Source of the DNA: Ostreococcus lucimarinus
Taxonomy: Eukaryota
NCBI GenBank assembly: GCA_000092065.1
Contig: CP000582.1
Strand: one strand, 5' to 3'
DNA length: 64,000 nt
This document shows, one piece after another, positions 1 through 58,301 of this stretch (positions are counted from its first letter, which is position 1; each line of letters starts with the position of its first letter). The notes beneath the pieces were generated by a model, which was not told where the DNA came from, searched no databases, and saw only the letters and a program-made list of their open reading frames with translations. The position numbers and the translations under genes are program-made.

Positions 1-1090
1 TTTTCTTCGGATCAGTCTCACGTGCCATCGCAATAACGGCGGAACGACATTTTGATCTCCGACATGATGATCTAGGGGTCGCGCGTAAGATATTGTGCGT
101 TGGTTGCCTACTTGCCAAAGAGTTCATCGCCGTCAATTATATGCCGCTTGAGATTTCTTTGTGGTAGGAGAAGTTGCCTGCGATTGCGAATGGGCGCATT
201 TCTAGAGTCAGTAATCGTGTGCATGTGCACACATCATCGCGGAGGAACGATAGTCCGCAATTTGCGTCGGCTTTGGTGCCTGGCGCACCGCACGTATGGA
301 GATAACGTTGACGAAGTGAAATAGATAAGGAAATAGTGATCCTCAGCGGATGACGCGACGCGCGTTTGCGGCACTCTGCAAACACACCGATCGATGGGCG
401 TACCTCAAGATCACACTGCCCGACGTTCCGGTCCGAACTCGAAGCGTTCAATTGCGGCGGACGTGAAAGCTTCACACTGAGGGTTTGTTCGGCCGACGTT
501 GGCGCGCGGCTCCATTTTTTCGGTTTTCATACTAGATTTAACCCACAGGATAGCGGAAACTCAAAACGCTCGAGTTGGATTGTTCATTGTGAAAAACATA
601 CCGCGTTACGTAAAAAAGAATTGGTTTCCCCTGTGATTTGATGATGACTACCGAGCTATCTGTAAACACGAAAGTAACTCGCCGTGCTTTCACTCCGCCC
701 AAGTCGCACCCAGCCGCGGTTGAAGCGCAAGTGGCACTGAGAGATATGCAGCTAAACTGTGTAGGCTCGATGAACTCGCGGTTGTCGGCCAATTTCAAAA
801 GTATCTGTCGACTCATCGAAGCTACAGCTAGTACGGGCCGCTCTTATTTCGTACGTATTCCCTTCACTCTCTGATAATTCTCAAGTCTTCGACGTAGACT
901 CATCCGCTCGATGCGGTTAGTGTATGCAAGGCTTCAAACGAACGTGCAAAGTCGAATTGGCACCGCTGCTCGCCCATAGCAAAGTGGTCAAACGCATTAA
1001 ATGGCTGGATAAGCGGACCGTCCACCAAGCTGAGTTCTCTACCGGGACGTGTTACCGACGTTAGTACTTTGCGCGATAGCACGTACGAAG

Positions 1091-2520: not shown

Positions 2521-3141
2521 CGACGTGCACACGTCGTCGCCGAACAAATACCCCGCCCCTCGAGGGGAAAGCCCCCAGCCGGAGACGTCCTCGGGGTCGC
2601 TCCAAAGCAAATCGCACATCGCGCCTTCGTGCGGCACCTCTTGTTTACGATCGATCGTTCGAATCTGATCGATCGTCGTGATGCTCGGGGACAACCCCCC
2701 GTGCACGCAAAATATCTTGTTATCTATGAGCGCAGACAACGAAAGGTAATCGAACACATCCGTGCAATATCGCCACACGTTGACGCTCCCGTATTTGCGC
2801 AAACACTCGTCGTAAAACCCGTACACCTGCGTGATCTGTCGACACTCGTGATTCCCCCGAATGAGATACATTCGATCCGGGTACCTCACCTTCAGCGCCA
2901 GGAGCAACAAAAACGTCTCCACGCTGTAAAACCCGCGATCGACGAAGTCCCCCATGAACAAATAGTTTGTATCCGGGCAGTCGCCGCCGACTTTAAACAG
3001 TTCCAACAAATCGTAAAACTGCCCGTGAATGTCCCCGCATATCGTCATCGTTTGCTCGTTAATCCACCGCACGCGATCGAAATCGTCGCTCGAAAAGTCA
3101 CGCAGCGACGCCTTCGCGTCCCGCATCGCCGAACACATCAA
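1282..3141 (-). pseudogene. Chimeric in-frame ORF of 619 aa: a truncated PP2A/PP4-type catalytic core (about residues 25-230) fused to the RFC1 large-subunit region downstream of the P-loop, from the duplicated copy. Probably a non-functional chimera.
   Basis: The N-terminal 205 aa carry the PPP motifs GDIHGQ, GDFVDRG, GNHE, HGG and SPRGAGY but lack the C-terminal His and tail. The junction at 2520/2521 continues in-frame into [12 protein letters not shown], identical to residues 88-498 of the ORF at 3574..5070. The fragment lacks the Walker A motif GAPGIGKTT. Confidence 0.55.
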
Positions 3142-3350
3142 TGTTGAGCGAAATATCTAACGCGGTGACGCTGTGCGTGAGCGCACCGCTGGATATGTAC
3201 GTCACGCCTGTTTGGCCGATGGCGTGGACGGTGTCTAGGGTGACGTTACCCGACGCCTCGGTGTCGACTCTGCCGTCGATGAGACGCACGGCGGCGGTCA
3301 TGTCCTCCACGGACATGTTGTCGAGCATTAAACGAGTGACGCTGCCCGTC
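3098..3350 (-). pseudogene. C-terminal fragment, about 85 aa, of quinolinate phosphoribosyltransferase (NadC/QPRT). Truncated at its 5' side at the duplication boundary.
   Basis: [64 protein letters not shown] matches the conserved QPRT C-terminus (MLDN...EVSGN.TL......tGVD.IS.GALTHS...LD.S). No upstream QPRT sequence is present. It overlaps the PP2A-fragment reading frame by about 40 nt. Confidence 0.6.
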
Positions 3351-3382
3351 GGGACGTTCGGGTCGTGCAGAATTTGTTCGTG

Positions 3383-4812
3383 CAGAATTTGTCCGCACGA
3401 CACCGAGTTCTAATACTTATTCTCATACTGCGATCTTACCGGGAGTTCGAGGCGTACATCGCCCTAAATCGTATGGAGACAACTTCTCTGTGAACAGGAA
3501 AGGATATCCAATCTGGCCTTAAGTCTCCTGTAATATTGCAATTTTCATTGTACAAACTAGCTCTGCCGTCGTTCTAATCACTAAATTGAAGTTCACGCTT
3601 GCAGCTTCGTGTAAAAGTCGATTTCACGTTCGTAGGTATTTGCGTATTCGGATTCTCAAAGGTAGGCCCCTTGCCAGAGAGCCCCGTTATCTCTTGAATA
3701 TTCGCCCAGTCGCCGCGCGTAAAGTTGTAGGTTTGCATCAAATTCAGGACGTCTGGTATACCATCTAGTTCTTTACCCCCTCGAGCTTGACTAAAAAGCG
3801 GACGAGTGAGCAACCGTTTTGTCAAAGAAGCGTACCAGAGGCAAAACTCAAGTTGAGTGCTGCAGCTCCTACCACTTGATCGAAAATGTTGATACAACTC
3901 TGATAACAGCCGCTGCGATTTTGACTTTGACGACAACTTCCCCAAGAGACTTGGGAATCGATGAGTGTGGCGTTCAGCCTGACCAAATGTTTCTCTTGAG
4001 CCTCTGACGGCAGAGGTTGGCAGGACACATGAAACTATGTTCGCAGGAGGCATCATGGTCCAGTTTTGTGTCTTGTTTATTGTCGTCGCAAACACATCTC
4101 CTTCTGCTACACGTGACGATGCCGCAGCAACGTGCACAATTCTTTGCAACTCGTTTGTACTGTCTCGCGGGCGCATACACGCATAGTTTTCTTGAACGAA
4201 CAGAGGGATCATGTCTGAGTGCTGGAAAACCAGATTAAGCCTCTCATCGAGTGTTTTTAATGGGCTTGGACGAAAAAGAACATCTATTGCTTGAAAAACA
4301 CTTGTGGCGACATCTTTTTTCGAAATTTCATTCCTTCCGTGATGCTTCGAGCTCATGCCCCATAGTTGTAGCTGGTTGATACTGGATCGAAGGTCATTGT
4401 TGTTTGCTTCTATGAGAGCATCAACTGCGTCGCTATCAACATCCAAGCGTTGTGAGGCTACAATTTGATTCAAGTACTTTCGGAGCTGGAGCTTATTTGG
4501 CCGTTGGAAAGGTAAATCGACACAATAGTTTGCAAGAGTCTTTAGTTTTTGTGAATATCGGTCGTTGCAGATGCATATGATGGGAATGCGCGTGTGTTTG
4601 ATGACTTCTATCAACTCCGAGATACCACCCCGATCGCCACCAGCCATACCATCTACTTCATCCATGATCAGTGCAGTCTTTGTTGATCGCAAACCATCAA
4701 TACCGATGTTACGATTAGTTACAAACTCTCGAACAGTACTCGCCAATGTTCCCGCTATCCCATCACTTACTGCTCCAGTCTTACCTCTTGAATCGCTTGC
4801 GTTTACGTTCAT
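3383..4812. repeat. Copy B of the 1.43-kb segmental duplication. It lies inside the intact RFC1-like gene and includes about 190 bp of its 3' flank.
   Basis: Same as copy A. Copy B is embedded in a complete 498-aa RFC1-like ORF, so it is the likely parental copy. Confidence 0.85.
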
Positions 4813-5458: not shown

Positions 5459-6238
5459 ATGTCGACCTCGACCGCGACCGCGACGACGACGACGACGGCG
5501 ACGCCGTCGCGCGCGCGCGCGCGCGGACGCGGCGCCGTCGCGCGCGCGTCGTCGTCGTCGTCCGCGTCGTCGTCCGCGCGCGCGCGCGACGCGGACGACG
5601 CGCGGCGCGCGCGCGCGCGCGGGCGCGTGCACGTCATCTGCGGACCGATGTTCGCGGGCAAGACGACGCACCTGATGCGATGCGTCGAGCGCGAGCGCGC
5701 GCGCGGACGGACGGTGTTCGTGATCAAATCCGAGCTCGACGTCGAGCGGTTCGGCGAGGACGCGCGCGACGCGCTGATCGCGCACGACGGGAAGCGCGTG
5801 CGGTTCGACGCGAGCGACGACGGCGGAAGGGTGCGCGCGGTGCGGACGCTGGACGCGGCGGGACTGGGCGCGGACGCGGCGGCGTGCGACGCGGCGGACG
5901 TCGTCGCGGTGGACGAGGCGCAATTCATGGGAGACTTGGCGCCGTTCGCGCGACGGTGCGCGGAGGAGCTGGGACAGACGGTGTACGTGTGCGGGTTGGA
6001 CGGGGATTACAGGCGGGAGAGGTTCGGGGGGGTGTTGGATTTGATTCCGCTGTGCGACACGGTGACGCGATTGAGAGGGACGTGCGCGGAGTGCGGAGAC
6101 GAGAGTTTATTCAGTCGACGCGTCGAGGCGAGCGAGGACGTGGTGCGCGTGGGAGGGAGGGATAAGTACGCGCCCGTGTGTCGAGCGTGTTACGTCGCGG
6201 CGTCGACGCGGGAGAGAGGGTCGGCGTCGGCGCGGTGA
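5459..6238 (+). CDS. TK1: Thymidine kinase, TK1 type, with a low-complexity Thr/Ala/Ser-rich N-terminal extension
   Basis: VHVICGPMFAGKTTHLMRCV (P-loop), VVAVDEAQFM, LDGDYRRERFGGVLDLIPLCD, and a C-terminal zinc ribbon CAECG...KYAPVCRACY. The ORF-track start at 5351 is probably upstream of the real ATG near 5459. Confidence 0.85.
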   Translation: MSTSTATATTTTTATPSRARARGRGAVARASSSSSASSSARARDADDARRARARGRVHVICGPMFAGKTTHLMRCVERERARGRTVFVIKSELDVERFGEDARDALIAHDGKRVRFDASDDGGRVRAVRTLDAAGLGADAAACDAADVVAVDEAQFMGDLAPFARRCAEELGQTVYVCGLDGDYRRERFGGVLDLIPLCDTVTRLRGTCAECGDESLFSRRVEASEDVVRVGGRDKYAPVCRACYVAASTRERGSASAR

Positions 6239-6338
6239 ACGGGACGCGTGTAATCGATAAATCGTACCGGTGGCTATTCACGTTTCGCTAATCGTATCGT
6301 TTCTTCGTTCGTCGCCTCGCTCGAGGCGCGCGCGCGTC

Positions 6339-9300
6339 CTAAAATTTTAATCGTTTCTTCGACGCCGGTTTCGCCGCCTTTTGCGCGGAGTTGACGGCGC
6401 GCTTTTTCGACGTCGTCACGCCCGCGGAGCGCAAGCCCGGCAGCGAGGCGTCTTCGTCGTTTTCGTCCTGGTCGTCGTCTTCGTCTTCCTCTTCGTCGTC
6501 GTCGTCGTCCACCACGACGGCTGCGCGACGTCGACGTCGGCTCGCTGGAGTCCCCGGAGTCGCCTCGGCGTCGGCGTCGGCGTCGGCCTGCGTCTTCGTC
6601 GCGCGCTTCCGGCCTCGCTTCGTCGCCGTTTCTTTGAACATGTCTTCGGCGAAATCGCTCGCGTCGCGAGTCATGAGATCGCGGAACGTGTCGACCGCGC
6701 GCCGAGCCGAGCCGTAGGATTGTCCAGCGGTTGCGTCGACAATACCGGTCTCAAATTTCACGGTATCGTCGAATTTCACGACTTCTGCGTTTCTCGTCGC
6801 CTCCGTGGGGACGTACGACGCCACGCGAGCGTCGGACAACTCGTACGCCTTCTTGACGTGAGATTTGAGCAACAAAACGACGCTCAGCGCACACGCGAGT
6901 TCGACGTCGCTCTTGAATTCGTTATCTGGCACCGCATCGTCCGCCTTGGCCGCCGACGCTTCCACGCCCTTCGTGAGCTGTTCGAGCAACAAGCCGCCCT
7001 TGAGCGATATGACGCGATTGAGCTGAAAGACGACGTAGAGAGTCTCATCCACTGATGTGAACGGAAGCTCGGTGACGACGCTCGCTAGGAATCGCAAGAA
7101 TAGCGCATCGGACGATCCGCTCGTGGTTTCAAACCGACGCAAAAGAGTGTTCAAGAACGCGTTTCGGGACGTTCTAGACGAGTTCACCAAGCTGTAGACA
7201 AACGCGAAACCGTCCGAGGCGTCGGCGATTTTCTTTTGCCCGCTTTCGCTTCTTCTAGCCGCCGTTTCCAGACGCTTCTTGAAAGAGTACGCAAGCTCGA
7301 CGCCGTGAGTGAGCTGATGCTCAAAAAAGTCACCGTGTCGTTGAACTTGCGCCTTCAGGAGCTTACGCGCGAGACGCTTAACGCTCGGCACTGGGTCGAT
7401 TTGTAGCGCGATGAGCGTGGGGAACGCGCTTGCCGGGTGAACCAAGCCTTGACGAAGGACCACCTCGACTAAATGCAAGCCTTTCAACCGCACGCTGTAC
7501 GCGGAGTCGACGCAAAGCGCTAAAACATCTGTCCAATATCGTTGCGCGATACCGCCGGCGATAGAACGATCACTCTGGCCGTTGACGACTTGCAATTTTT
7601 CCGCGTCTCGCGAGCGCTTTTGCGCCGACTTGAGCACCGAAGCCTTAGTGGAAGCGTTGACTTCATTGGCCGCCGCCGATCCACTCGTCGCAGTCATACG
7701 AAATTCTTCCTCTCGAATGAGCTCGCTGAGATTCGTCAGCGCCTGCTCCTTCAAGCCACGCTCGGCGCTGGATGCCAACGCGGCTCGCATGATGGAATCA
7801 AAGCTTCCTTTGCCGAAACCGCCGTCGCGATTAAACATGAGTTCTGGTCGAGCGACGAACAAGTCTCCGCACGCCCCGAGCGCTCCACGAGTGAGATCGT
7901 ACTCTTCTGCAGGCTGAGACTCCAGGGTCTTGCGGAAGACTCGAAGAAGATCCTGAATCGAGATATCGCATTCACCATTTTCGACGGCCGCGTCCACGAC
8001 GTCGGCTCCAAATCGCGCAATATTACCCAATACGTACAGCGAACGCGCGCAGTGCGATTTGTTCTGAACGCTCAACGCTTCATCACTAGATATGGATTCG
8101 ATGACGATGGCAACGAATCGTTTCAGCATAGACATCGTTCCACTATCCTTACCGCCGCGAGTCTCCGCCACGGCGCACAACGTCTTACACGCGTAATAAA
8201 TGACAGCTTTGTCGTGATGGCGGAGTAAGAGGATGCGCAAGTCTCGTTCGATCTCTTTCGCAATCGGCGCTGGAAGACGACCAGCGTGTTTCGCAACAAT
8301 ATGCACGACGGACATGCAGCACTGGAGCTTCTCACCGACGAAAGGCGCGTCGTCGTCGACCCGCTTCAGATACGGCTGGAGCGCCACGGCGAAATACGAT
8401 GGGTCGCGTTTCGGAAGGCAGAGACACGGATCGACGACGGTCAGAATGTGGAGACCGAGTGCGTACTTGACGCTCATCGGCACCGACTTCGACGTGCCCG
8501 GCTCGTCTTTCACGACCACGCCATTGTGTGCTCCGTTCGATTTGACTCGTTCACCGTTTGGCGCGCGACTTTGCTCGTCGGATTCGCTCTCGATGAGCGC
8601 GTGCAACACCTGCACCGATAAACGCTTCGCTACCTTTCGCATACCGCGAACATTGACCCATGCATCAACCTTCTCGTCTTCGCTCGGATACAGCACCGCG
8701 CTGATGATCGCAACGACCGGAAACGTGGGAAGTAAAGGAAGCTTTTGTTTGCCGCTTCGGGAAACGAGTCGGTAGACGCCCCAAGCGACGGAGACCATTT
8801 GCCGCGCGCGAATCGCGATTGGATCATTATCCTCGATACCATCATGCCCAACGGTGGCTAAGTGCGCCGTAGATGCGTCTTCGTCATCACTGCCATTGTT
8901 TCCGTCCCCATCATCTTCGTCGTCATCGTGTTCATCGTCGGCTTCGTCTTCCAATGCAACCGGTGAAAACCAAAGCTCGCGAAAAATCTTCACAACGTGC
9001 GAACGGATCGTTTCTTCTTCATCCAGTATGCGAAACGCCAACACTTGCATCGCCTTATCCGCTTTAGTAAAGTCAGGATTACGCAGGCATTCTTGCAGGG
9101 TGGAAACCACGCGCTTGCGCACAGATACACCGACGTCGGATACGCGGTCTTCAATCAAGTCGTAGTACTTTTCGGCAAGACTGACGTTTCGCACCATCTG
9201 TCTGCCGATGACATCCACCACGGCGGCTCGCACGGACGATCCCGTATCTTTCAATCGGATTTTCAGCGCGCGAACGATATCCGGAGACTCTAACAGTTTC

Positions 9301-47266: not shown

Positions 47267-50200
47267 TCACGGTGAGCCCGAGCCCCCGGACGTTCGCTTG
47301 CGCGCCTCGCGCGCTCTCTTGATGGCCTCCTCTAGAGCGCTCATGTCCGTGACGGACGTCGAGCGGTTCACCGCGCCCACGCGTCGCATGGGCACGCCGC
47401 CGTCTTCCTCGGAGATAAGATCCGATCTCGACGGCGATCGTCCGAATGCATTGCGCGAGAATGGGATGTCGCGAATGTCGCGTTCACCCTCGGCGTTCGT
47501 TCGATACGACGGGCCCGACAAGTTGCTGACGCTACTCGATCGCGGTAGGCCCACCGAGCTCGATCGCTGTAAGTTCGAACCAGCTTTTGCACTGTTCGGC
47601 TCGGACGCGCCGTTGGCTTGCGGTCGCTGAGTGAACATATCGAAGAATTGCTGCCCGTAGGAGTCTCGTCGTCGCAATGAATTTTGCGTGTGGTATCGAG
47701 GCGAGTCCGGAATCGTCGAGCTTGGTCGCTCATCGAGCACTTGATCGTAAATTTCAATTGGGCTCTGCGCTTTCCAAGCCGGAAGCTCACCCTTGGTGGT
47801 CGACGCCGGCGCCGACGACGATAAACTCGATGCATCGGACATCCGACCCGTTCGTAACGGCGACAAGTAGGACGAAGGGTTCACCGGCGCGCGCGAATTC
47901 GCCGTCTCTGAAACCGCATCCATCGCAGCTTGCAACGCGCTCTTTCCTCGAGGGGGCGTCATCGGTGCCGTAGGCGTCGATGGACGCGAAGGCACGCCTT
48001 CACCGTCTCGGGTCTCTACCTTTGGTGACGGGGGCTGCGGCTGTTTCGCCGGCTCAGCAGAACTCGTTGCAGGCTCGTTCGATGTGAACGCGAACGGACT
48101 CTCCTTGCTCAGCGCCGCGACGGAAGCGGCATCTAAGCGATCGCTCGAAAACGAGACTGTGTTGTCCTTGCGCGCCGTCGGAATAACGACGGATGACTCC
48201 GAAATCGGCGGCGCCGCCGCCGCCTTGAGCGCAGCCGCAGAAGGCGCGGGCGTGACGAAAGCGGCCGGCGGCGGCGGTGGTGGCGTCGGCGGTTCAGACG
48301 TCTTCAACGTCTGTGGCAACGTCTTCGCCGACATCGCCTCCTTCGACGGCGTTGAGCCTTCTGGAATGAACGGCATCTTCACCCCGTTTACGAAGCCCGT
48401 CATTCCGATCACCTTTTCGCTCGTCTGCTCGAGGTCTCGCGAGTTGCTATTCATCAGCGCGCGCACGGGCAAATCGTACGGTCTGTTGCCAAACGGCTGC
48501 TCGATTTGCTCAGCCGCAGCCTCAATCCCGAACAGGGCGAGAGAAAGAATGGTGGTGACGGGGACGACGCCCCATACTCCGACTTCATGCACTAAAATCA
48601 TCGGTAACGAGCACACGTACACCATGAGCGTAGACTTCAAGTGGGTGATGATGCAACCCGGAGGCGGTTGGTTGACGACTTTTTCGCAACTCCCGTAGTT
48701 ATCCATGATCATCGCCACCTCGCTGTGGATCGTGCTCGCGATGGCGGGAGGGACGTAACCTTTGTTGAATGCTTCTTGGACGCAGCCGCGAATCTTTTCG
48801 AGGCAGTACAACACCTTATTCTCGGCGAGAAATAATCCTTCCAAGTCTCCCGCGTCAAGCGGTGTGGTGAGCTGACTCAAAATCGCTCCGTCGTTCAGCA
48901 CTGTACCATTCAATCGATCAGCCACGGTTTCTTTCAAAGCACCAATCAGACCCAGCGTTCGCGCGGCGAGTATCGGGTCGTCCGGCGCGACCCACGTGCA
49001 GAACGTGCCGCCAAGATTTTTGCAGTAAAACAAAATGTTTCCGAGACACGTGCGGCCGTACCACCAGCGCTCGTGCGCGTTGTTCCATCTAAAGACTAAC
49101 ATGAAACCCATGGGGAGGCCCAGGACGCCGTGCATGAAGGGTGAGAGCTTGAACATGTTCGCACCGAGACGAACCTTGGCGAAAGCCACGGCACACGCGC
49201 ACGTTGTGCTCAACAACGTCGGCTGCACAGGACCGAGTTCACGATTGATCACCCAGCGAGGGTTACGACCGAACACAGAGCTAAACAATCCATTATCGCT
49301 AAACTCGAGAGGATTCTCGGGGTAAAGTAGCAGCGAAGCTAAGAATAAACCGGTACCCATGACGGAGAACAAAACGAGTCGCGTCGTCTTGCTCGGGTCG
49401 CGCGTGATCCAAATATTGAGCAACCTTTGCATGATGCGAACAATCTCGCGCTCGGTTTCTTCCCACGCGAGTTTGTACCAGGGATCGGGAAGCACGACCT
49501 CGTCGTCGTCATCTTCCTCTTCGTCCTCGTCGTCTCCGTCATTCTTATCGTCTCCTCCTCCTCCTCCCCCGCCGCCGCCGGACCGCGCGTCGTCGCCATC
49601 ATCGCCACCGCCCACGCCCGCTAACACGGGATCAGCACCAGATTCTGCGGCCATTCCCGCCGCGGACCTTATCGCGCCTCCGCTCACCACCGGCGCGCTC
49701 TTCGGCGTCGCCAGCTTCTTCTCCCCCGTCTCCTTCTCTCCGTCAGTTTTCGGTTTCGTCTTCGTCGTCGCGCCTCCCTTCGTCGCGCTTCCGCTCGGTC
49801 CTTTCCCATCACCGTCTGCGGCGTCCCCCCCTTCCTTATCTCCACCGTCTTCTTTGTACTCTTTCCCTCTCGGTTCCCGCTTCGACGGCGGCAACAGTTC
49901 TTCCTCGCTCAACACCGGCCGCGTCGTCGACTCCGCGCGCGCGGGCGTCGATTTCGTCGGCTCATCCCGCGCCACCGCCGGCGTCTGCGCCACCGGTCCC
50001 GTGCCCACGATCGCCGTCGTGTTCGCGCGCCGCTTTTCGATGGCGTACGAGTCGTTCGGCTTGGAGGCGCCGCTGACGACGCCGGCGCCGTCGTCGCCGT
50101 CGCACGGCTCCACCATCGCGTCGCTCGCGCGCGGCGCCGGCGCCGCGTCGTCGACGGCATCGGAACGAATCGCCTCGCTCGACGATCGCGCGTCGTCGTC

Positions 50201-50389
50201 GTCGCTCGAGAGCGCGCGCGGCGGCGTGATTTGCACACCTCGTGGAATCGCGACACGGCGAACGAAAACGCGCGCGCGCGGGCTCGCGTGACGCGCGATG
50301 CGAGCGGCGCGCGGTGGAACGCGCCGTGGAACGCGCGCCGAAGCGCTCGACGCGCTCGACGCGCGAACGGTAGGCGCGAGGCGCAGCAT
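47267..50389 (-). CDS. Bestrophin-like (UPF0187/VCCN-type) anion channel homologue with long low-complexity N- and C-terminal tails
   Basis: Core RWNNAHERWWYGRTCLGNILFY..., several TM helices, and the family motif PFGNRPYDLPV. Flanked by a Gly/Asp/Glu-rich region and a Ser/Pro/Ala-rich C-tail. The start is uncertain. The ORF runs to 50638, but MLRLAPTV at about 50389 looks like a transit peptide and leaves room for the neighbour's 3'UTR. Confidence 0.6.
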   Translation of the reverse strand: MLRLAPTVRASSASSASARVPRRVPPRAARIARHASPRARVFVRRVAIPRGVQITPPRALSSDDDDARSSSEAIRSDAVDDAAPAPRASDAMVEPCDGDDGAGVVSGASKPNDSYAIEKRRANTTAIVGTGPVAQTPAVARDEPTKSTPARAESTTRPVLSEEELLPPSKREPRGKEYKEDGGDKEGGDAADGDGKGPSGSATKGGATTKTKPKTDGEKETGEKKLATPKSAPVVSGGAIRSAAGMAAESGADPVLAGVGGGDDGDDARSGGGGGGGGGDDKNDGDDEDEEEDDDDEVVLPDPWYKLAWEETEREIVRIMQRLLNIWITRDPSKTTRLVLFSVMGTGLFLASLLLYPENPLEFSDNGLFSSVFGRNPRWVINRELGPVQPTLLSTTCACAVAFAKVRLGANMFKLSPFMHGVLGLPMGFMLVFRWNNAHERWWYGRTCLGNILFYCKNLGGTFCTWVAPDDPILAARTLGLIGALKETVADRLNGTVLNDGAILSQLTTPLDAGDLEGLFLAENKVLYCLEKIRGCVQEAFNKGYVPPAIASTIHSEVAMIMDNYGSCEKVVNQPPPGCIITHLKSTLMVYVCSLPMILVHEVGVWGVVPVTTILSLALFGIEAAAEQIEQPFGNRPYDLPVRALMNSNSRDLEQTSEKVIGMTGFVNGVKMPFIPEGSTPSKEAMSAKTLPQTLKTSEPPTPPPPPPAAFVTPAPSAAALKAAAAPPISESSVVIPTARKDNTVSFSSDRLDAASVAALSKESPFAFTSNEPATSSAEPAKQPQPPSPKVETRDGEGVPSRPSTPTAPMTPPRGKSALQAAMDAVSETANSRAPVNPSSYLSPLRTGRMSDASSLSSSAPASTTKGELPAWKAQSPIEIYDQVLDERPSSTIPDSPRYHTQNSLRRRDSYGQQFFDMFTQRPQANGASEPNSAKAGSNLQRSSSVGLPRSSSVSNLSGPSYRTNAEGERDIRDIPFSRNAFGRSPSRSDLISEEDGGVPMRRVGAVNRSTSVTDMSALEEAIKRAREARKRTSGGSGSP

Positions 50390-50671
50390 GATGCGCGCGA
50401 GTCGCGGTCTGGGGACGCGCGCGCGAGAGCGCGGCGGCGCGCTCGACGACGTTCGAGCGACGCGCGCGGTGAAGCGCGAGACGGGGTGTACAGATGGTGC
50501 GCGATGGTATTGAATCGAGAGCGACGCGCGCTGGAGCGGCGATGGGACGACGGATGGAATCGCGTCGCGCTCGCCGAGAACCGCTTCGGTTCGTCGGTTT
50601 GAGAACGCGTCGGTCATAATTTTCCGTCGTCCTCTCATCGTCGTCGAAGCCGTCGTCGTCGTAAACTAAGG

Positions 50672-51391
50672 CTAAAGTTCATCTCGAATGTCTCGCGCGA
50701 TCGCCTGGGCGTCCATCTTCGGCGGATACCGACGAACCACGCGCCCGCGATCGTCTACTAAAAATTTCGCAAAATTCCACTCCGCCGGCGCGCCGCCCGC
50801 GGTGAGCTGCGCGAACATCGGATTGTGCGCCAAATCCAGCGCGGGTTCGAATAACACATCCATGACGTCCGCGAAATCGCGTTTGATTTCCTCATTCGTT
50901 CCTTGCTGATGTCCGAAGTCGTCGCTCGGAAATCCCAATATGCGCAACCCGTCGCCGAATTCTTCGCGAAGCGCGCGAAAGCCCTCGACGTTGGATTGCT
51001 TGTATCCTCAGTGCGATGCGACGTTGGTGACGAGCGTGAACGCGCCTCGCGAAGACTCGCGTTTGGCGACTGGAAATCCCAGGAGCGCTTCGTCGCGCAC
51101 GACGCCGCCGTCGATGTCGTGAAGCACGCCGCTCAACACCGCTTCAAAAACCCCCAGCGCGTCTCGCGCCGCCAGCGCGTCCGCGGAGACGAACGACGCG
51201 GTTTGCAGCGCGCGCGCGTGCGCGCGAGCGTCCGTGAACGGGCGCACGACGACGTGAAGGAAGAAACCACCCAGAACGGTGGTTAGAAGAATCAAAACGA
51301 GTGGGCCGTGACGCGCGCGATTCGCGCGCGCCGTTCCGGGATAGGCGGCGGCGAACGGCGCGGTGCCGCTTGATTCGACGTCCGGAGGCAT
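50672..51391 (-). CDS. GPX: Membrane-anchored glutathione peroxidase with an in-frame TGA at 51008..51010 at the catalytic position, a putative selenocysteine
   Basis: ORFs 51008..51391 and 50672..50947 share one frame. The join reads ...GAFTLVTNVASH-[TGA]-GYKQSNVEGFRALREEFGDGLRILGFPSDDFGHQQGTNEEI...WNFAKFLVDDRGRVVRRY, colinear with GPX (NVAS.[C/U]G, FPCNQFG.QEPG, W.NF.KFLV). The N-terminus has a TM anchor. Confidence 0.75.
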
Positions 51392-51465
51392 GGCGACGCG
51401 CGACGCGCGAGAGCGCGGCGTCGCGATGTGGCGCGGTCTACTTATGGTACACTTGCGTTACACAG

Positions 51466-52881
51466 CTACAGGCTCCGACCCGCCTTTGCGGACGCGAGCT
51501 GACCTTCCCAGTTGTTTCTAAATTTCCTATAAATCGCGAGCGCGGCCAAGGCGTCTTCGGCGGGATCGTGAGCATCTCCACACTGAATGCTTAGCGCGCA
51601 AAAGTCACGCGCCAGATGCCGCAAGCGACGAGGCTTGCGGAAGTGCGGCGGACGCAACAGCGGCCGCCATTTCGCGGTATCTCGCGTGTCTTCCCGTGGA
51701 TGGTGGAGCTGTAAAGCCGAAAAGTCGTTCTCCAGGGCGTGGCCGACGACGATGCGACCTTTTATGAGTTCAGCAACGTCGCGCTTGACGTCGGCGAATT
51801 CGCGCGCGCTCGACCCTTCGACGTGACGAGGAAGGATGCCGGAGACGTGCGTGCGATAGTCCGTGACTGTTTTGTACGCGCGTGAATAACTCAAATACAC
51901 TGTGTTTCCGTATTCGTTGATCACGCAGACCTGCGCGAGCATGGATTCCACGCCTCCTTCGCCGACGCCGACCATCTCGCAATCGAGCGCCAACACGTCG
52001 GTGACGGAGCAATCGTCGCTGAATGGCCTCGGTCGTTCGAGTTTGGTGCGATTCTCTAACCGTTGCACGTTTTCGTAAACGTCCCTGTGCGACTTTTTCC
52101 GCGCCTCACTCACGCCCGTGCCATCCAAACATCCGTTTCCGAACGGGTCTTCGCGCGCCGTGTAAAATCGCGCGACTTCTGCGACGACTTCGCGTCTCCA
52201 AAGCGCCTTTAAAACGCGCGAAAAATTCTGAAAAAATCCAGCGCTCTCAAACGTTGCTCGCGGAATAAATCCCACCATCGACGCTTCTTCGCTCGCTCTC
52301 GAACCGACCAAAGCGAGCTGATCCGCGCGCGCGTTCGCCGTGTGCGCTCCGCCTTTATGCGCCGCCACCTTCGCGATCAAAGTCTTCTCCCGCCTCTTAC
52401 TCAGCACGAACGCCGTCAGCACCGTCACCGCGTTCACAGCGATTTCGTCCACGTCTCCCCTCGCTATTATCTCCACGCACTTGCACACGTATCGCGAATC
52501 CGACATCACCGCCAACTTTTCGTCTCTCGGATGTCGAACGAGCGCCGCGAAAACCGCGCACATCTCCACCGCGTTGATATCGCACGATTTCCTCGCGCAC
52601 GACCCCGCGAAATTCAAATGATGTCCAAACTTATACCACACGCCCACGCCGCTCGCCGCGCCGCTCGCGTCGACGCTTCCGTCGACGTAACACGCGTCGT
52701 CGCCCGCGCTCGCGCCCCGTCGACGCCCCACCCCTCCGCCTCCGCGCCCGCCGCTCGCGGACGCCCGCGCGTCGCACCGTCGAAACCGCATCGCGAACGC
52801 CGCGCGGACGCGCGGTATCGCGCGTCCGACGGCGCGACACGCGAAGAACTCGACGACGAACCAAAAGATGCGCAGTCGCAT
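51466..52881 (-). CDS. Fusion protein: RNase H (type 1) domain plus REX4/ISG20-like DEDDh 3'-5' exonuclease
   Basis: RNase H catalytic pattern CYVDGS (D), INAVEM (E), VMSDSRYV (D), AHKGGAHTANARADQLA (H..D). Exonuclease LALDCEMVG, IVVGHALENDFSAL, HDPAEDALAALAIY. The start is taken at MRLRIFWFVVEFF (52881). Upstream ORF sequence to 54006 is spurious. Confidence 0.6.
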   Translation of the reverse strand: MRLRIFWFVVEFFACRAVGRAIPRVRAAFAMRFRRCDARASASGGRGGGGVGRRRGASAGDDACYVDGSVDASGAASGVGVWYKFGHHLNFAGSCARKSCDINAVEMCAVFAALVRHPRDEKLAVMSDSRYVCKCVEIIARGDVDEIAVNAVTVLTAFVLSKRREKTLIAKVAAHKGGAHTANARADQLALVGSRASEEASMVGFIPRATFESAGFFQNFSRVLKALWRREVVAEVARFYTAREDPFGNGCLDGTGVSEARKKSHRDVYENVQRLENRTKLERPRPFSDDCSVTDVLALDCEMVGVGEGGVESMLAQVCVINEYGNTVYLSYSRAYKTVTDYRTHVSGILPRHVEGSSAREFADVKRDVAELIKGRIVVGHALENDFSALQLHHPREDTRDTAKWRPLLRPPHFRKPRRLRHLARDFCALSIQCGDAHDPAEDALAALAIYRKFRNNWEGQLASAKAGRSL

Positions 52882-53140
52882 CGCGAGCCGTTCGAGGCGC
52901 GTCGTCGCGCGCGTCGCGCGCGGCGTCGCGTCCATCGCGCGCGCGACGCTCGAACCTCGCGCGCGTCGCGTCGCGTCGCGTCGCGGCTCGCCGGCGCGCC
53001 GGCGCGCCGCGCGCGCGCGAGGTGCGAGCGCGCGAGTGCGGCGGCGGCGCGTCACTCCGCGCCGCGACGCGCCGCGACGCGCGCCGGCGACCGCGCGGCG
53101 CGACGCGGACGCCGCCGAGACGCGCGACGCGTCGATCGCG

Positions 53141-53953
53141 ATGGAGTACGTCAGCTTCGAGGGCTTGCGCGCGGACGGACGACGGGCGAACGAGTGTCGA
53201 CGCGTCCGGCACGAATTCGCCGTCGACGCCGACGCCGACGGGAGCGCGCGGTTCGAGATCGGGAACACGGTCGTGCAGGCCACGGTGCGAGGACCGCGCG
53301 AACGGCGCGGCGGACGCGCGGAGGAGGGCGCGAGCGACGCGTGCGCGGTGACGGCGACGTACGCCGCGAGCGGGGCGGCGGCGGACGGCGCGAACGGACG
53401 ACGAAAGGGGGATCGAAAGGCGCTCTCGCACGCGGAGACGCTGACGAAAATACTGGATAGGGTGGTGATGACGGAATTGATGCCGCGGAGCGCGATCGCG
53501 GTGACGTGCACGGTGCTGTGCGACGACGGAGGGGCGAAGGCGGCGAGCGTCAACGCGGCGACGTTGGCGCTGGCGGACGCGGGAGTGCCGCTGAGGGACA
53601 CGGTGGGCGCGGTGACGTGCGGATACCTCGATGGAGAGGTGTTGATCGATCTCAATCGCGAGGAAGAGCGCGGACGAGGGCCGGAGCTGTTGATGTGTTC
53701 GACCGGCGCGGGCGCGACGAGCCGCGCGGCGGCGGCGAGCGACGACGAGGAGGAAGAGGACGAGGGCGTGGATATCTCGGGCAGAGAAATCATCGCCGAG
53801 GAGCTCGATCGAGGGAAAACGACGATGGAAACGTACGATGCGATGCACGATCTCGCGCTCGCGGCTTCGGCGGTGATATCGGCGCGCATGCGCGAGGCGA
53901 CGCTGGAGCGCACGCGTTCGCTCGCCGCGACGCGCGCCCTGGAGAAGTTTTGA
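53141..53953 (+). CDS. Exosome complex RNase PH-like subunit (Rrp46/Mtr3/Rrp41 class)
   Basis: MEYVSFEGLRADGRRANECRRV..DADGSARFEIGNTVVQATVRGPRE...PRSAIAVTCTVLCDDGGAKAASVNAATLALADAGVPL is the RNase PH fold signature. It diverges from the RNase H-REX4 gene, with about 260 bp between the start codons. Confidence 0.7.
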   Translation: MEYVSFEGLRADGRRANECRRVRHEFAVDADADGSARFEIGNTVVQATVRGPRERRGGRAEEGASDACAVTATYAASGAAADGANGRRKGDRKALSHAETLTKILDRVVMTELMPRSAIAVTCTVLCDDGGAKAASVNAATLALADAGVPLRDTVGAVTCGYLDGEVLIDLNREEERGRGPELLMCSTGAGATSRAAAASDDEEEEDEGVDISGREIIAEELDRGKTTMETYDAMHDLALAASAVISARMREATLERTRSLAATRALEKF

Positions 53954-54563
53954 CTCCGCGCGTCGACTCGTCTCGACCCGACCGCCGCGTCGTCATCAAA
54001 TATCATATTAGTTCAATCAGCGCGCGCGAGCCTCGAAATCATCACCGCGACGCGAGCCGTCGATCGCCGCCGCCGCGTCCCGAACCCGAACCGTCCCGAG
54101 CGTCGCCTCGACCGCACACCGCGCCGTTCCGGCCCGATGCCCGAATCCAGCGCGCGCTCCCGCGACGCCGTCTCCGGCTCGTCCGACGTGTTGTCGAGCA
54201 GCAATCGCGGTCGACGCAAGCGCGCGCGCGCGGCGGACGACGTCACGGGACCGAGTTTGTTGGGCTTCGTGCAGGTGGACGTGCGGTCGCTCGACGCCGC
54301 CGCGGTGCGCGCGCCCAAGTACGAGGAGCCGTTGGAGTGCGGACAGGTGCGTGAGACGATTTCGCGCGCGCGGGCGCGCGGGCGACGCGCGCGGAGGCGT
54401 GCGACGACGGCGTGAGGAAGATTGCGTAGAATTCGGCCCGGGCGCGAGCTAACTGTCGCCGCGGCGCGCGACGGCGCGATTCGTGGGCGCGTTCGCGAGC
54501 GCGCGCGAGGTGCGCGCGAATGACTGAAATGCATCGACGCGGAATGTCGAGTCGCGCGCGCAG

Positions 54564-55997
54564 GTGAGCAAGAGACGGGACGAACGATTGACGACGTACG
54601 ACGCGACGAATTTGCGGCGGCTGCGCGGCGTCAACGCCGGCGCGGGCGCGGATCTCAATCAAGGATTCGGCACGTTTCGAGATCGCGATCGGCGAGAGAT
54701 TTATCCGGCGCCCGTGCACGTGATATTTGGTGCGATCGAGGCGAGCGGGCAGACTAAAGTGTTAGAAGACGTGGACGTGATCACGTGGCGAGGAAACATG
54801 AGCAAGTTGCTGACGACGGCGTGGAACGTCTCCGAGGCTTGGACGATGGAGGCCGAATTGGTCAACAACAGGACGATCGTTTTGAACGTCAAAGAAACGG
54901 AGGAAGGGTTGCGAAAGGCGCTCACTCGCGACGGGAGAGACGAGCGGATGTGTTACTGGGGATACGCTTTCGAGGAGGCCGCGTGCTCGGAGAAGCCGTT
55001 CGAGGAACCGGTGGATTGCATGGAATGTTTTTGCTGCGTCGTCAAGACGAAAATGGGTGATTTAAACGTCTTAATGGCTGGAGAAGTCGATTGTTTCGAA
55101 GGTGACGCCGAGCTGGCGAATTACGTCGAGTTAAAGACGTCGAGGGTGATGAACGACGAGCGACAGGTGAAACGTTTTGAAAAAGAAAAGCTCTTGAAGT
55201 GGTGGGCGCAGTCGTTCGCGCTGGGTGTAAGGAGAATAATGGTTGGATTTCGCGACGACCACGGGCGCGTGGTGAAAACGCAAATGTTAGAGACGCTCAA
55301 GTTACCGGGATACGTCGTCAAGCATGCGAACTCGTGGACGCCCAAGGACGCTCTTCGATGCGCGTCAGCGGTGCTGACGAAGCTCAAAGAGTTACTCGCC
55401 GACGAACCCAGCGGGACGCGAGTGCGAGTTGAGTACGAACCGAAAAAGGCGAAGCATCGCGTGAATTTCATTCGAGATGATTCGATCCCTGACTTTTTAC
55501 CCGCCGACGCGCGCGCGAAACTCATGAACGACGGGTCCTGGCGCGAGAGAGGACCGCAGCCTACCGCGAGGCCAACTTCCGCTTCGGAGCCGCCGCGAGA
55601 TGCGCCAGCGCCCGAACTTTCGGAAACTGCGTCCGCGATGAGCATTCGGGCGCGAACAGAGGGCAGAACGAACAGAATAGAGTACATCCGCTCGCTCGGA
55701 CCGGCGGCGCTTTTGTACATGCAAGGCAAAGACCCTCGAAGAACGTTGCGAGGACGCGTGGACGACGACACGATGGGTGGTATCGGCATCGACCCTTCGA
55801 TTTGGATACAACAAAAAGCCAACTACACCGGTATCGACGCCCAAACGAGCCCACAGATGATGAATTATGATCACAAAGCGGCGCCGGCGTCGTCGGCGAA
55901 ATCGAGCGGCGCGCGGCGCGCAAGTTCTTCCGGTGTCGGCGACGCGCACGATCGCGCGTCAACGGAAAATAGCGATCGCGAAAACTCACAAAATTGA
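54564..55997 (+). CDS. DXO/Rai1-family decapping exoribonuclease
   Basis: GYAFEEAAC, EPVDCMECFCCVVKT, AGEVDCFEGD, ANYVELKTSR, KLLKWWAQSFALGVRRIMVGFRDDHGRVV match Rai1/DXO motifs (E.D...E.K active site). Confidence 0.7.
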   Translation: MSKRRDERLTTYDATNLRRLRGVNAGAGADLNQGFGTFRDRDRREIYPAPVHVIFGAIEASGQTKVLEDVDVITWRGNMSKLLTTAWNVSEAWTMEAELVNNRTIVLNVKETEEGLRKALTRDGRDERMCYWGYAFEEAACSEKPFEEPVDCMECFCCVVKTKMGDLNVLMAGEVDCFEGDAELANYVELKTSRVMNDERQVKRFEKEKLLKWWAQSFALGVRRIMVGFRDDHGRVVKTQMLETLKLPGYVVKHANSWTPKDALRCASAVLTKLKELLADEPSGTRVRVEYEPKKAKHRVNFIRDDSIPDFLPADARAKLMNDGSWRERGPQPTARPTSASEPPRDAPAPELSETASAMSIRARTEGRTNRIEYIRSLGPAALLYMQGKDPRRTLRGRVDDDTMGGIGIDPSIWIQQKANYTGIDAQTSPQMMNYDHKAAPASSAKSSGARRASSSGVGDAHDRASTENSDRENSQN

Positions 55998-56099
55998 TTC
56001 AGATTGATTACACTGTAGAACAGAATACTGTAGCATCGGCGCTCAAAGATATGTCGTACAGAGACGCTCAAAGGAGAACACGCCCGTCCGCGTCCTCGT

Positions 56100-56230
56100 T
56101 TACTCCTCCGCATCCGCATCCGCATCCGCATCCTCCTCCTCCTCCTCTTCCTCCTCTTTCTCCTCTTCCTCCTCTTTCTTTTCCTCCTCTTTCTCTTTCT
56201 TCTTGCCGCACTCCGATTCCTCGTCCTCCT
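56100..56230. repeat. Microsatellite: (CATCCG)n followed by a (CTC/TTC)n pyrimidine tract
   Basis: catccgcatccgcatccgcatcctcctcctcctcctcttcctcctctttctcctcttcc... read directly. Confidence 0.8.
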
Positions 56231-56984
56231 CGTCGCATTCGTCGTCGTCGCCGCCGCCGCCGCTCGCCCGGCCGATGCGCGCGCGCGACCCACCACTTCG
56301 TCGCATGTACCGCGCCCGCGATTTATCCACCGCCGCCTTGCGATCGTACAACAACGAGCGTCGCGCGCCCGGCGTCGGCCTCGCGACGTCCGCGTCGTCC
56401 GCGTCCGTCGCCCGCGCCTCCGTCACCGCCTCCGCGTTCGCCAGCGCGATCGCGTTCGCGAGCGACGACGCGCCCGTGAGCGCGACGCACGCGACGCCGG
56501 CCGTCGTGGCGAGCGCGAACAGGCGCGCGCGCGCGCGGCGTCCGCGCGAATGGTGTTCGCGAGGTCGAGACATTCTTCGACGATTCGCGTCGCTTCGGCG
56601 CGCGTTCGACCGCGCGGTTCGTTCGGCGCGCGCCGCGAGACGTCGAGCGTCCCGGGTCGTCGAGCGCGGGGCGTCGAGCGCGCGCCGCGCGTCGGCGTGC
56701 GGTCGCGCGTCGCGTCGATCCGAGGCGTCCGCGGTGTGGTCGCCGCGCGGAAAAATTTATATATCGCCCCTTTAGAGAGTACCTACACACATGACGAGTC
56801 ATGAACCGTGGATATATACGTATTTTACACCGTTTAGTTCTAAAAGTTTGATTCTACAACATCTACGAGAGGTAGTTCCTAATGCTAATTTGCTCGCCTT
56901 TGCTTGCCTTGCGTTTGTGTTCATCGACCATCTTCTCGTGCAGAGATGATTTCAAGTGCGATTAAATGATTGGATGACGTGTTA

Positions 56985-58301
56985 TCAAAAGGACCCGTGT
57001 CGGGCGACGATTTCTGATACTGATGAACCATTAAGTATGTCTTGACGTATACTGCTCTCAGAAAATACTCGCTTTAAAGCTTCTTCAATCACGATATTTC
57101 CAAACCGTCTTGGGATAATCAGTGTTCCTTCTTGATCACTGAAAATCAAATCTCCCGGACAGCACGAGACGCCATCCAAGCTAATACACTGATTTGTTGA
57201 CTCTACTGTAGCAACACCTCTCACATCAGAGCAGGTTGAACCGGCTGCGTAGACGGGAAAGTTCGAACATTTCACTTCCACTGTATCGCGTGTAAAACCA
57301 TTCGTGACGAAACCGGCGGCTCCCCTCGTTATGGCAATGTGAGCATTAAGATCGCCAAAATATGCTCGTCCCTTCATCGGATTTTCTACTACGATAACGT
57401 CACCGAAGCCGACGTAGTTGTATGATTTTAGAGCACCATAGATTCCCCTGAGATCTTCACTTTCACGAAGAGGCCTTAACTTAAGTGTGCAAGCACGACC
57501 GAAGACCTTGCTCAGTGCGCCTTGTGGTTTTAAGCCGAAGACCACTCGTCCACTTACGCCCATATCATCCAGCGTGTCTGATAAAATGGCACTGGTGAGA
57601 TGTAGTTTGGCGCACCTCAAGCGAGATAGACCAGCGACGCGGTGCGCTAAAGCGATATTGTTTGCAAGAGCGAAGTCAACTTCGTAGTTGATATCAACTG
57701 CTTCTTCTGGCGTAACATGCAGCATGTGTGGTTTGTTCCCTATCCTTCGCCGAGTCAGCTTCGCCGCATCTCTCGTAATGTTGTACAGCCCCATGGTCTC
57801 CACGGTAGTCGTTGGCAAATCAACTGAGTTGGGAATATTTTGGATATCATAGCTCGGCCCTGCCTTTGTCCACGTATACAGTTTATCATCGCGAACAGTG
57901 CACGCGGAGTCATAAACACCGGACATCACGCTCTCGACACCTTTCTTAATCGTTTCTGGATGTATGAACGGGCTTGTGCACAGCGCCTGCACATAGATTT
58001 CGGCATCGAATCGCTCAACTTCGTTCATGAACAGAGTGTTACCGTCCGTCTTGTTCGTGGCCAACGCCTCGTCCCGCTTTAGGAAAACTAACTTTGGATT
58101 ATCGCTCGCAAGAAATTCCGCCACCTTGAAAACATCATCGGACTCAGAGTCCAAGACAACTTTGTCAATAAAAGGACACTCGAAGAGCAACTTTTCCAAA
58201 GTGTGCAGGAAGAGTGGTTTGGAATCCAGCAGTTTCGTGTTCTTGCTCTCTACGCGACTCGATGTACCTTTGCACGGCACAAACGCAACGATCCGCGCCA
58301 T
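56985..58301 (-). CDS. Fusion: N-acylneuraminate/CMP-sugar cytidylyltransferase (CTP_transf_3) N-domain plus RraA-like (class II pyruvate aldolase/MenG-like) C-domain. It lies in a low-GC island.
   Basis: N-terminus RIVAFVPCKGTSSRVESKNTKLL..KPLFLHTLE...VVLDSESDD matches the CMP-NeuAc/KDO synthetase family. C-terminus VGFGDVIVVEN...GDLNAHIAITRGAAGFVTNGFTRD...FPVYAAGSTCSDVRG...CPGDLIFSDQEGTLIIP matches RraA/HMG-CHA aldolase. Local GC is about 47% against about 68% in the flanks. Confidence 0.6.
   Translation of the reverse strand: MARIVAFVPCKGTSSRVESKNTKLLDSKPLFLHTLEKLLFECPFIDKVVLDSESDDVFKVAEFLASDNPKLVFLKRDEALATNKTDGNTLFMNEVERFDAEIYVQALCTSPFIHPETIKKGVESVMSGVYDSACTVRDDKLYTWTKAGPSYDIQNIPNSVDLPTTTVETMGLYNITRDAAKLTRRRIGNKPHMLHVTPEEAVDINYEVDFALANNIALAHRVAGLSRLRCAKLHLTSAILSDTLDDMGVSGRVVFGLKPQGALSKVFGRACTLKLRPLRESEDLRGIYGALKSYNYVGFGDVIVVENPMKGRAYFGDLNAHIAITRGAAGFVTNGFTRDTVEVKCSNFPVYAAGSTCSDVRGVATVESTNQCISLDGVSCCPGDLIFSDQEGTLIIPRRFGNIVIEEALKRVFSESSIRQDILNGSSVSEIVARHGSF

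Follow-up and report, generated by a model that had tools for sequence, protein, structure and literature searches.

A putative single-chain endo/exo ribonuclease for RNA:DNA hybrids in Ostreococcus: an RNase H1-type domain fused to a REX4-type exonuclease

Introduction

The stretch of DNA considered here (the window) comprises 64,000 nucleotides of the genome of the alga Ostreococcus lucimarinus (NCBI GenBank assembly GCA_000092065.1, contig CP000582.1). On its minus strand, at positions 51466..52935, there is a gene for a protein in which a ribonuclease H1 (RNase H1)-type catalytic domain is followed by a 3′–5′ exonuclease domain of the REX4/REXO4 type, i.e., of the DEDDh class. By analogy with two human proteins that bind each other, RNase H1 and REXO4, this fusion protein is probably, with a confidence only a little above even, a single-chain endo/exo ribonuclease for RNA:DNA hybrids: a covalent version of the human pair.

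The human pair was described by Yang et al. (Sci Adv 2026, PMC12915616). REXO4 was recovered through proximity labelling with RNase H1, to which it binds directly and whose endonuclease activity it raises. REXO4 itself digests the RNA strand of RNA:DNA hybrids in the 3′–5′ direction, from ends and from nicks. The two proteins act in synergy on hybrids and co-regulate R-loops genome-wide by what is termed “endo/exo-cleavage coupling”, and loss of either REXO4 or RNase H1 from human cells leads to an increase in hybrid signal, including in the nucleoli. A deletion mutant of REXO4, referred to without a name, lost both the interaction with RNase H1 and its stimulation; the one purified mutant in the methods, del1-219, is without the region N-terminal to the exonuclease domain, and presumably the two are the same. 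Natural fusions and algae go unmentioned in that paper. Because human REXO4 binds RNase H1, and the two degrade R-loops by endo/exo coupling, the same coupled activity is the most likely function for a protein in which the two kinds of enzyme are joined.

The fusion gene and its parts

The window is gene-dense, with a GC content near 0.6–0.7, and its open reading frames (ORFs) are mostly without interruption. An ORF of 846 codons ends at 51466 on the minus strand, and its upstream portion overlaps the plus-strand gene for an RNase PH-like subunit of the exosome (RRP41). The first ATG of this ORF that is clear of the RRP41 coding region is at 52935, giving a continuous coding sequence (stop codon 51466–51468) for 489 amino acids. 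A near-identical database protein, P0001, has the same length and one residue different, and there are full-length homologues. An alternative start codon on the same strand (52879..52881, i.e., ATG 52881; MRLRIFW...) is located 18 codons inside this ORF. The start at 52935 is most likely the true one: it is used by database gene models and is a better fit to the N-terminus of the O. tauri protein, and both the O. tauri protein and a helix predicted by AlphaFold2 (AF2; residues 13–36) reach upstream of 52881.

From its N-terminus, the protein begins with an Arg-rich extension (amino acids 1–57; 52765..52935, minus strand, as for all parts of the gene), for which AF2 predicts a helix, a second helix and a short strand, and which holds the hydrophobic segment FWFVVEFFA. 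This is followed by a Gly/Arg-rich spacer of low complexity (amino acids 58–79; 52699..52764), which is predicted to be disordered, with a predicted local distance difference test score (pLDDT) below 50; Gly-rich runs occur at the corresponding place in other Mamiellophyceae-like members. Then come the type-1 RNase H catalytic domain (amino acids 80–213; 52297..52698), a linker (amino acids 214–310; 52006..52296) and the REX4/ISG20-type DEDDh exonuclease domain (amino acids 311–489; 51469..52005). The linker has predicted helices (AF2) and includes the motif GNGC(I/L)DG of the Mamiellophyceae-like members; it gave no Pfam match.

The original prediction had assigned the two domains to the RNase H1 and REX4 types, and searches with hidden Markov models confirm this. 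In the 489-amino acid product, Pfam RNase_H (PF00075) matches amino acids 82–209 (E=1.2e-14; 55.1 bits, against a cut-off of 25.8), and RNase_T (PF00929) matches amino acids 316–469 (E=7.5e-6; 27 bits, against a cut-off of 24). The scores for PF00075 in the homologues are 35–68 bits.

One gene in a small algal family

A database search found about 40 clusters that carry both Pfam domains, including proteins from O. tauri (named “RNA exonuclease” or “RNA exonuclease 4”), Prymnesium parvum and Phaeocystis antarctica; most of the remaining matches were ordinary REX4 proteins with PF00929 alone. A scan of 1.84 billion cluster representatives with a profile of the family gave 1,940 matches at E<=1e-30, and among the best of these only about 12–15 (clusters at 50% identity) cover both halves of the profile. 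Further named members are from Tetraselmis sp. GSL018, T. striata and Pelagophyceae sp. CCMP2097. Thus, the family is found in Mamiellophyceae, Tetraselmis, haptophytes and one pelagophyte. In the same scan, five REX4-like proteins of 733–850 amino acids (P0184, P0186, P0192, P0194 and P0196) each gave four separate matches to the exonuclease part of the profile, and therefore appear to have tandem exonuclease domains.

Transcripts of homologues bear on whether the two domains belong together. Both domains are found together in transcriptome-derived ORFs from Tetraselmis, and three ORFs from MMETSP transcripts (P0181, P0310 and P0332) contain the pair, which for the homologues bears out the single-gene status that had been proposed from the window alone. 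In an alignment of 18 members, which are 32–92% identical to the window protein, D85, E124, D146, H193 and D205 of the RNase H domain are invariant, and so are D318, E320, D404, H456 and D461 of the exonuclease domain, which make up the DEDDh motifs ExoI–III with H-x4-D. Both sets of catalytic residues are also kept in the pelagophyte and Tetraselmis proteins.

The ratio of non-synonymous to synonymous substitution rates (dN/dS) was computed region by region, with a relative of 92% identity (locus L016) for comparison. Constraint is strongest in the linker (0.07), followed by the exonuclease domain (0.10) and the RNase H domain (0.31); in the first 60 residues the ratio is about 0.9, with the changes mostly in the first nine residues and beyond residue 53. 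These values indicate strong purifying selection on the exonuclease domain and the linker. Ostreococcus genomes have a single copy of the gene, in conserved synteny. To judge from its sequence and those of its homologues, it is one gene with two domains. That separate RNase H and REX4 genes had been read as one ORF, for which there is only the tendency of GC-rich sequence to yield many long spurious ORFs, is effectively ruled out: no stop codon separates the domains, the same architecture and linker recur in more than 20 independent sequences including the transcriptome ORFs, and the linker is the part that close relatives have changed least.

The original prediction also held that the architecture had not been characterised, and this appears to be right: literature searches for an RNase H–REX4 fusion found no description, most papers in subscription journals being outside the search. 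Public databases do, however, already contain proteins of this architecture, under the plain label “RNA exonuclease 4”.

The two catalytic domains

The RNase H domain has the RNase H fold, and by sequence it stands closer to the cellular RNase H1 enzymes than to those of retroviruses. An origin from a retroelement was considered and rejected, given this profile and the lack of a reverse transcriptase gene nearby. When the RNase H module alone was used for a profile search, the matches were fragments of the fusion family and then, past a large gap in score, bacterial-type RNase HI, with no unfused close relative that might have been its donor.

Two features of eukaryotic RNase H1 could not be recognised in the fusion protein. 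Pfam gave no match to the hybrid-binding domain (HBD; PF01693) at E<=0.1. In an alignment with human RNase H1, the basic protrusion (WvqgWkkngWk), which belongs to the helix C region between catalytic D3 and the His, pairs with a non-basic, variable sequence; in the AF2 model, a 9-residue acidic loop (GDVDEIAVN) between two helices takes the place of the W/K-rich protrusion of the human and Escherichia coli enzymes, and relatives have variable inserts at this site.

The exonuclease domain was compared with the sequences in the PDB and matched ISG20L2 (8.5e-27), ISG20 (2.2e-22), SDN1 (2e-12) and PAN2 (about 5e-9). It is 36–37% identical to ISG20L2, with a Foldseek template modelling score of 0.90–0.92 to structure 7yw5. 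The named relatives of this domain without a fusion are the “RNA exonuclease 4” proteins of plants, animals, fungi and oomycetes, and its identity to plant and animal proteins of that name is 40–50%.

The N-terminal module

In the AF2 model of the full-length protein, the N-terminal segment is a long, confident helix. When residues 1–232 were modelled alone, helices were predicted at 13–36 and 41–51 with pLDDT of about 97, the strand at 54–57 was retained, and the predicted template modelling score (pTM) was 0.81. Thus, the N-terminus is predicted to form a helical hairpin and a strand that pack on the RNase H core, with no need of the exonuclease domain; the packing is deduced solely from the pTM, pLDDT and DSSP assignments for residues 1–232. 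In 18/18 homologues, the N-terminal region has a helix, hydrophobic or amphipathic, and then a short strand (e.g. RLTVxVKG in haptophyte members), but the sequence is poorly conserved. No counterpart of the hairpin was found among solved RNase H structures.

Proposed mechanism

In the proposed mechanism, the protein would act as four parts: the N-terminal helical hairpin, the RNase H1-type catalytic domain, the helical linker and the REX4/REXO4-type DEDDh exonuclease. The RNase H domain would nick the RNA within a hybrid, either an R-loop or what is left of a primer, leaving 3′-OH ends, and the tethered exonuclease would digest the RNA from these new ends in the 3′–5′ direction. The endo/exo coupling of the non-covalent human pair would here be fixed by a gene fusion, of the kind known as a “Rosetta-stone” fusion. 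As the RNase H domain is without the HBD and the basic protrusion, the substrate would probably be bound by the Arg-rich hairpin and the Gly/Arg spacer together with the exonuclease part. The site of action would presumably be the nucleus or the nucleolus. The original prediction, that one polypeptide removes the RNA of RNA:DNA hybrids, gains support from the invariance of both active sites throughout the family and, by analogy, from the human pair (PMC12915616).

Four points weigh against a covalent RNase H1–REXO4 pair acting on hybrids. Firstly, the HBD and the basic protrusion are both missing from the RNase H part, and their loss could mean altered or weak binding of hybrids. Secondly, REX4 is classically a factor in the processing of precursor ribosomal RNA (pre-rRNA), at internal transcribed spacer 1 (ITS1), so a role on RNA:DNA hybrids could be secondary. 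Thirdly, the pTM of the full-length AF2 model is only 0.54, so the model does not fix the placement of the two catalytic domains relative to each other. Fourthly, the RNase_T score of the window protein barely exceeds the Pfam cut-off, compared with scores of 38–58 bits in homologues.

Alternative functions

Four other functions can be considered, in pre-rRNA processing, in a three-gene cluster, in organelles and in defence, and all of them are less well supported than a covalent pair for hybrid degradation. The one that survives best, although still rather unlikely, is that the fusion protein is the REX4 of these algae, with a role in nucleolar pre-rRNA (ITS1/5.8S) processing, and that its RNase H domain is an accessory, which clears R-loops from the rDNA or only binds nucleic acid. 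The nearest named relatives of the exonuclease domain are indeed REX4 proteins, no separate REX4 of Mamiellophyceae was found among the 120 best matches, and ISG20L2, the best solved relative, is an ITS1-processing enzyme according to the title of 7yw5. The divergent RRP41 gene would on this account reflect co-regulation of nucleases for ribosome biogenesis, and the pairing with RRP41 is kept in four Ostreococcus-like species and in a Bathycoccus-like contig despite rearranged surroundings; it is missing, however, in three other clades that bear the fusion. The rise in nucleolar hybrid signal upon loss of REXO4 or RNase H1 from human cells (PMC12915616) fits a nucleolar role also. Against a mere binding module, the invariant catalytic residues of the RNase H domain argue, from sequence, for an active enzyme. 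Furthermore, a role in pre-rRNA processing overlaps with coupled hybrid degradation instead of excluding it.

A function shared with the neighbouring genes is unlikely. According to this explanation, the fusion gene, RRP41 and DXO (a DXO/Rai1 gene downstream of RRP41) form a co-regulated cluster for nuclear RNA surveillance, combining hybrid removal, the exosome and quality control of 5′ ends. The gaps between the genes are short (205 bp and 183 bp), and the order DXO–RRP41, divergent from fusion–glutathione peroxidase (GPx)-like gene–bestrophin, is the same in the window, in O. tauri, in the P0004 species and in the contigs of near-identical strains (P0001). Where flanking genes are readable, the trio is found in three Ostreococcus-like species only (that of the window, O. 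tauri and the P0004 species). The 5.3-kb contig of the P0002 species has the RRP41 pair and ends before the region past RRP41. In the P0010 species, the RRP41 pair is retained but CIA30 is in the place of DXO; in the Bathycoccus-like contig, the pair is retained but a glycosyltransferase gene replaces DXO, alongside a gene for a 2-oxoglutarate (2OG)-oxygenase with ShK. Neither RRP41 nor DXO adjoins the fusion gene in the P0013–P0019 clade, in Prymnesium or in a second haptophyte-like contig.

The intergenic sequence is unconserved: an alignment of the region between RRP41 and the fusion gene from four species revealed no conserved promoter motif besides the context of the RRP41 ATG. A 2OG-oxygenase/ShK gene is also near the cluster in the window, as in the Bathycoccus-like contig, so that the pairing may be residual synteny. 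By a rough inference, with RNA nucleases making up about 2% of some 8000 genes, one such triple is unlikely but not extraordinary, given the freedom with which the category can be chosen. The other neighbours in the window are functionally unrelated (a presumed selenocysteine GPx, bestrophin, NAD_binding_1, CIA30, RINT1, trigger factor, CTP_transf_3/RraA and the 2OG oxygenase).

Thus, the original prediction of a neighbourhood of RNA-degradation genes holds for Ostreococcus-like genomes, where the trio adjoins; the synteny is absent from other clades with the fusion, and the RRP41 pair extends only as far as the Bathycoccus-like contig. Because the neighbours are absent in those clades and the intergenic sequence is unconserved, the trio is a local, lineage-specific arrangement of Ostreococcus-like genomes, which stands outside the proposed hybrid-degrading system itself. 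The pairing with RRP41 may reflect co-expression from a shared divergent promoter of 205 bp, or plain residual synteny. In the P0010 species, the RRP41–fusion intergenic region is expanded to about 1 kb by several tandem units of about 130 bp (locus L004, ~5900–6750; …TGAGTCATGACTCGACGAGTGGACCACTCGGG…GAAAGAAAACCCGTACGCGTG…), which are absent from the other species.

Returning to the fusion protein, a role for it as a remover of primers or R-loops in mitochondria or plastids, with the N-terminus as a transit or anchor sequence, is very unlikely. Plants and animals do direct isoforms of RNase H1 to organelles, the fusion family is confined to photosynthetic lineages, and the N-terminus is rich in Arg, Ala and Thr, with a hydrophobic helix that in about half of the homologues exceeds 1.6 on the Kyte–Doolittle scale over 19 residues. 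In the window protein, the maximum over 19 residues is 1.26 (0.75–1.95 in the family), short of the usual threshold for a transmembrane segment, the segment including three Arg and one Glu. The N-termini of haptophyte members are amphipathic and acidic, unlike presequences, and AF2 places the helix in the confident hairpin and strand docked on the RNase H core. The suggestion that the hydrophobic N-terminus serves for targeting is thereby weakened.

Still less probable is a nuclease for defence against viruses or retroelements, spread horizontally among marine algae, although the exonuclease domain resembles ISG20, the family has a patchy occurrence across unrelated algal lineages, and a giant-virus-like contig encodes a stand-alone REX4-like exonuclease. 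A scan of viral contigs found no fusion, its sole match being that stand-alone exonuclease. Within Ostreococcus, the gene occurs once and keeps its synteny, its exonuclease domain and linker are under the strong purifying selection described above, and its RNase H domain is of the cellular, not the retroviral, type. The viral exonuclease (locus L017, 4896–5636; IMG/VR UViG_3300046786_001078, a viral contig of 91.6 kb) is a REX4/ISG20-like DEDDh protein of 246 amino acids without an RNase H domain. It is 43% identical to the exonuclease domain of the window protein and comes directly after an ORF of 587 amino acids that resembles a capsid protein of large DNA viruses.

The RRP41 and DXO genes

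The original prediction had placed three genes for RNA decay between 51466 and 55997, and all three are there, each supported by Pfam. The region between the divergent starts of the fusion gene and RRP41 (52936..53140) is 205 bp in length and is a putative bidirectional promoter. The figure of about 260 bp given earlier agrees with a start at ATG 52881 (259 bp) and gives way to 205 bp with the preferred ATG 52935.

The RNase PH-like gene (53141..53953, plus strand) encodes 270 amino acids, as does RRP41 of O. tauri, and matches Pfam RNase_PH (E=7.6e-26) and RNase_PH_C. Its product matches human RRP41 best (7e-38), then archaeal Rrp41 (about 1e-27) and yeast Ski6 (6e-22), with MTR3/RRP46 at about 2e-9; by these sequence matches, the gene is the orthologue of RRP41 (EXOSC4/Ski6), a core subunit of the exosome. 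The context of its ATG, ATGGAGTACGTC, is conserved in four species. In the motif DDGGAKAA, the phosphate-binding pair is Lys-Ala, and the downstream Asp in LIDLN is retained; the same pair is Tyr-Ala in human RRP41 (inactive) and Arg-Leu in Sulfolobus. In Arabidopsis thaliana, the corresponding pair is R131-S132, which makes plant RRP41 phosphorolytic, and the site also includes D174 (PMC5735172).

The DXO gene, on the plus strand, has a first exon that was overlooked by ORF-based gene calls. The ORF at 54564–55997 matches Pfam RAI1 (PF08652; E=6.3e-83, 279 bits), but its first codon is GTG and its earliest in-frame ATG comes no sooner than residue 78, so a start within this ORF would truncate the RAI1 domain. 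Exon 1 (54137..54346; 70 codons), which begins with MPESS, was identified by its homology to exon 1 of O. tauri (GPSLLGF...KYEEPLECGQ) and ends with KYEEPLECGQ at a GT donor (CAG|GTGCGT). An intron of 217 nucleotides (54347..54563; GT...AG) follows, its position matching that in the gene model of O. tauri, up to the acceptor GCGCAG|GTG, and exon 2 (54564..55997) comprises 477 codons and the stop. The spliced product has 547 amino acids and includes GEVD and VELK (the E-x-D and E-x-K motifs of the PD-(D/E)XK type). As exon 1 precedes the ORF, DXO starts 183 bp past the RRP41 stop codon, and the earlier distance of 600 bp was an artefact of the missed 5′ exon.

Other features of the window

A GPx-like gene (50672–51391, minus strand) has an in-frame TGA (51008–51010) at the catalytic position NVAS-x-[Sec/Cys]-G (…LVTNVASH*GYKQ…), and from its sequence is very likely a selenocysteine (Sec) GPx. 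Related contigs (L007, L013 and L016) have the same split pair of ORFs, likewise flanked by the fusion and bestrophin genes. An Rfam scan of 49800–56400 found neither a selenocysteine insertion sequence (SECIS) element nor, between the genes, any structured RNA. The bestrophin-like ORF (47267–50638, minus strand) is of 1123 amino acids, compared with 828 in the O. tauri model; its first approximately 400 residues are of low complexity, and it begins just 33 bp past the GPx stop codon. A true start further downstream is probable and would leave space for a GPx 3′ untranslated region and SECIS element.

Another unusual fusion, of 438 amino acids (56985–58301, minus strand), combines an N-terminal cytidylyltransferase domain (CTP_transf_3; 3.4e-11) and a C-terminal RraA-like/aldolase domain (3.4e-23). 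In the first part of the window (1–4000), the GC content is down to 0.49–0.50, compared with 0.54–0.75 elsewhere.

Significance

When two proteins occur in nature as a gene fusion, this is a classical sign that they act together. The fusion described here joins the exact pair reported in human cells in 2026, and thus lends that model independent support from distant eukaryotes; it suggests that the partnership of RNase H1 and REXO4 is old. The new N-terminal module may replace the HBD. For the biochemistry and structure of coupled hybrid degradation, the protein could provide a compact, single-chain enzyme (about 490 amino acids) in a genetically tractable alga, Ostreococcus. The gene neighbourhood is of little general importance.

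All these elements can be combined into one account: the fusion protein would be the sole RNase H1-type and the sole REX4-type enzyme of these algae, with the hairpin module in place of the HBD, doing the work of animal RNase H1 and REXO4 together; gene transfer would have carried its gene between the unrelated lineages of green algae, haptophytes and pelagophytes, and in Ostreococcus-like and Bathycoccus-like genomes the gene would be co-expressed with RRP41 from the shared divergent promoter. As a whole, this account is doubtful. If it were true, the RNase H1–REXO4 partnership would be of ancient date and common to many eukaryotes, instead of being peculiar to human cells.

Comparison with known systems

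In Escherichia coli, a type-1 RNase H gene (rnhA) is divergent from the gene for a DEDDh 3′–5′ exonuclease (dnaQ), 64 bp apart. These are separate genes, however, and DnaQ serves in Pol III as the subunit for DNA proofreading and is no RNA exonuclease, so this is an analogy only. Retroviral reverse transcriptase–RNase H (e.g. that of HIV-1), for which a structural match was also listed, likewise has an RNase H domain without the basic protrusion. Such a domain depends on its fused partner for holding the substrate; the partner is a polymerase in retroviruses, whereas it is an exonuclease in the algal protein.

Eukaryotic RNase H1 comprises an HBD, a linker and the catalytic domain. The algal fusion is without the first of these (PF01693) and without the W/K-rich protrusion, and has in addition the N-terminal hairpin and the C-terminal exonuclease. 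Yeast Rex4, human REXO4, ISG20L2 and ISG20 have all the DEDDh residues in common with the algal exonuclease domain but, unlike the algal protein, are without an RNase H domain. REX4/REXO4 proteins have a non-catalytic, basic N-terminal region, which is long in animal REXO4; it is absent from the algal fusion, in which the RNase H module takes its place.

The closest comparison is the human complex of REXO4 and RNase H1, which brings together an RNase H1 catalytic domain and a DEDDh exonuclease of the REXO4 type, i.e., enzymes from the same two families. The human proteins are separate and bound to each other, whereas their algal counterpart is covalent, encoded by one ORF and, in homologues, by one transcript. 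The algal RNase H part differs from human RNase H1 in the loss of the HBD and basic protrusion and the gain of the hairpin. It is situated N-terminal to the exonuclease domain, the side on which a region is missing from human REXO4 del1-219.

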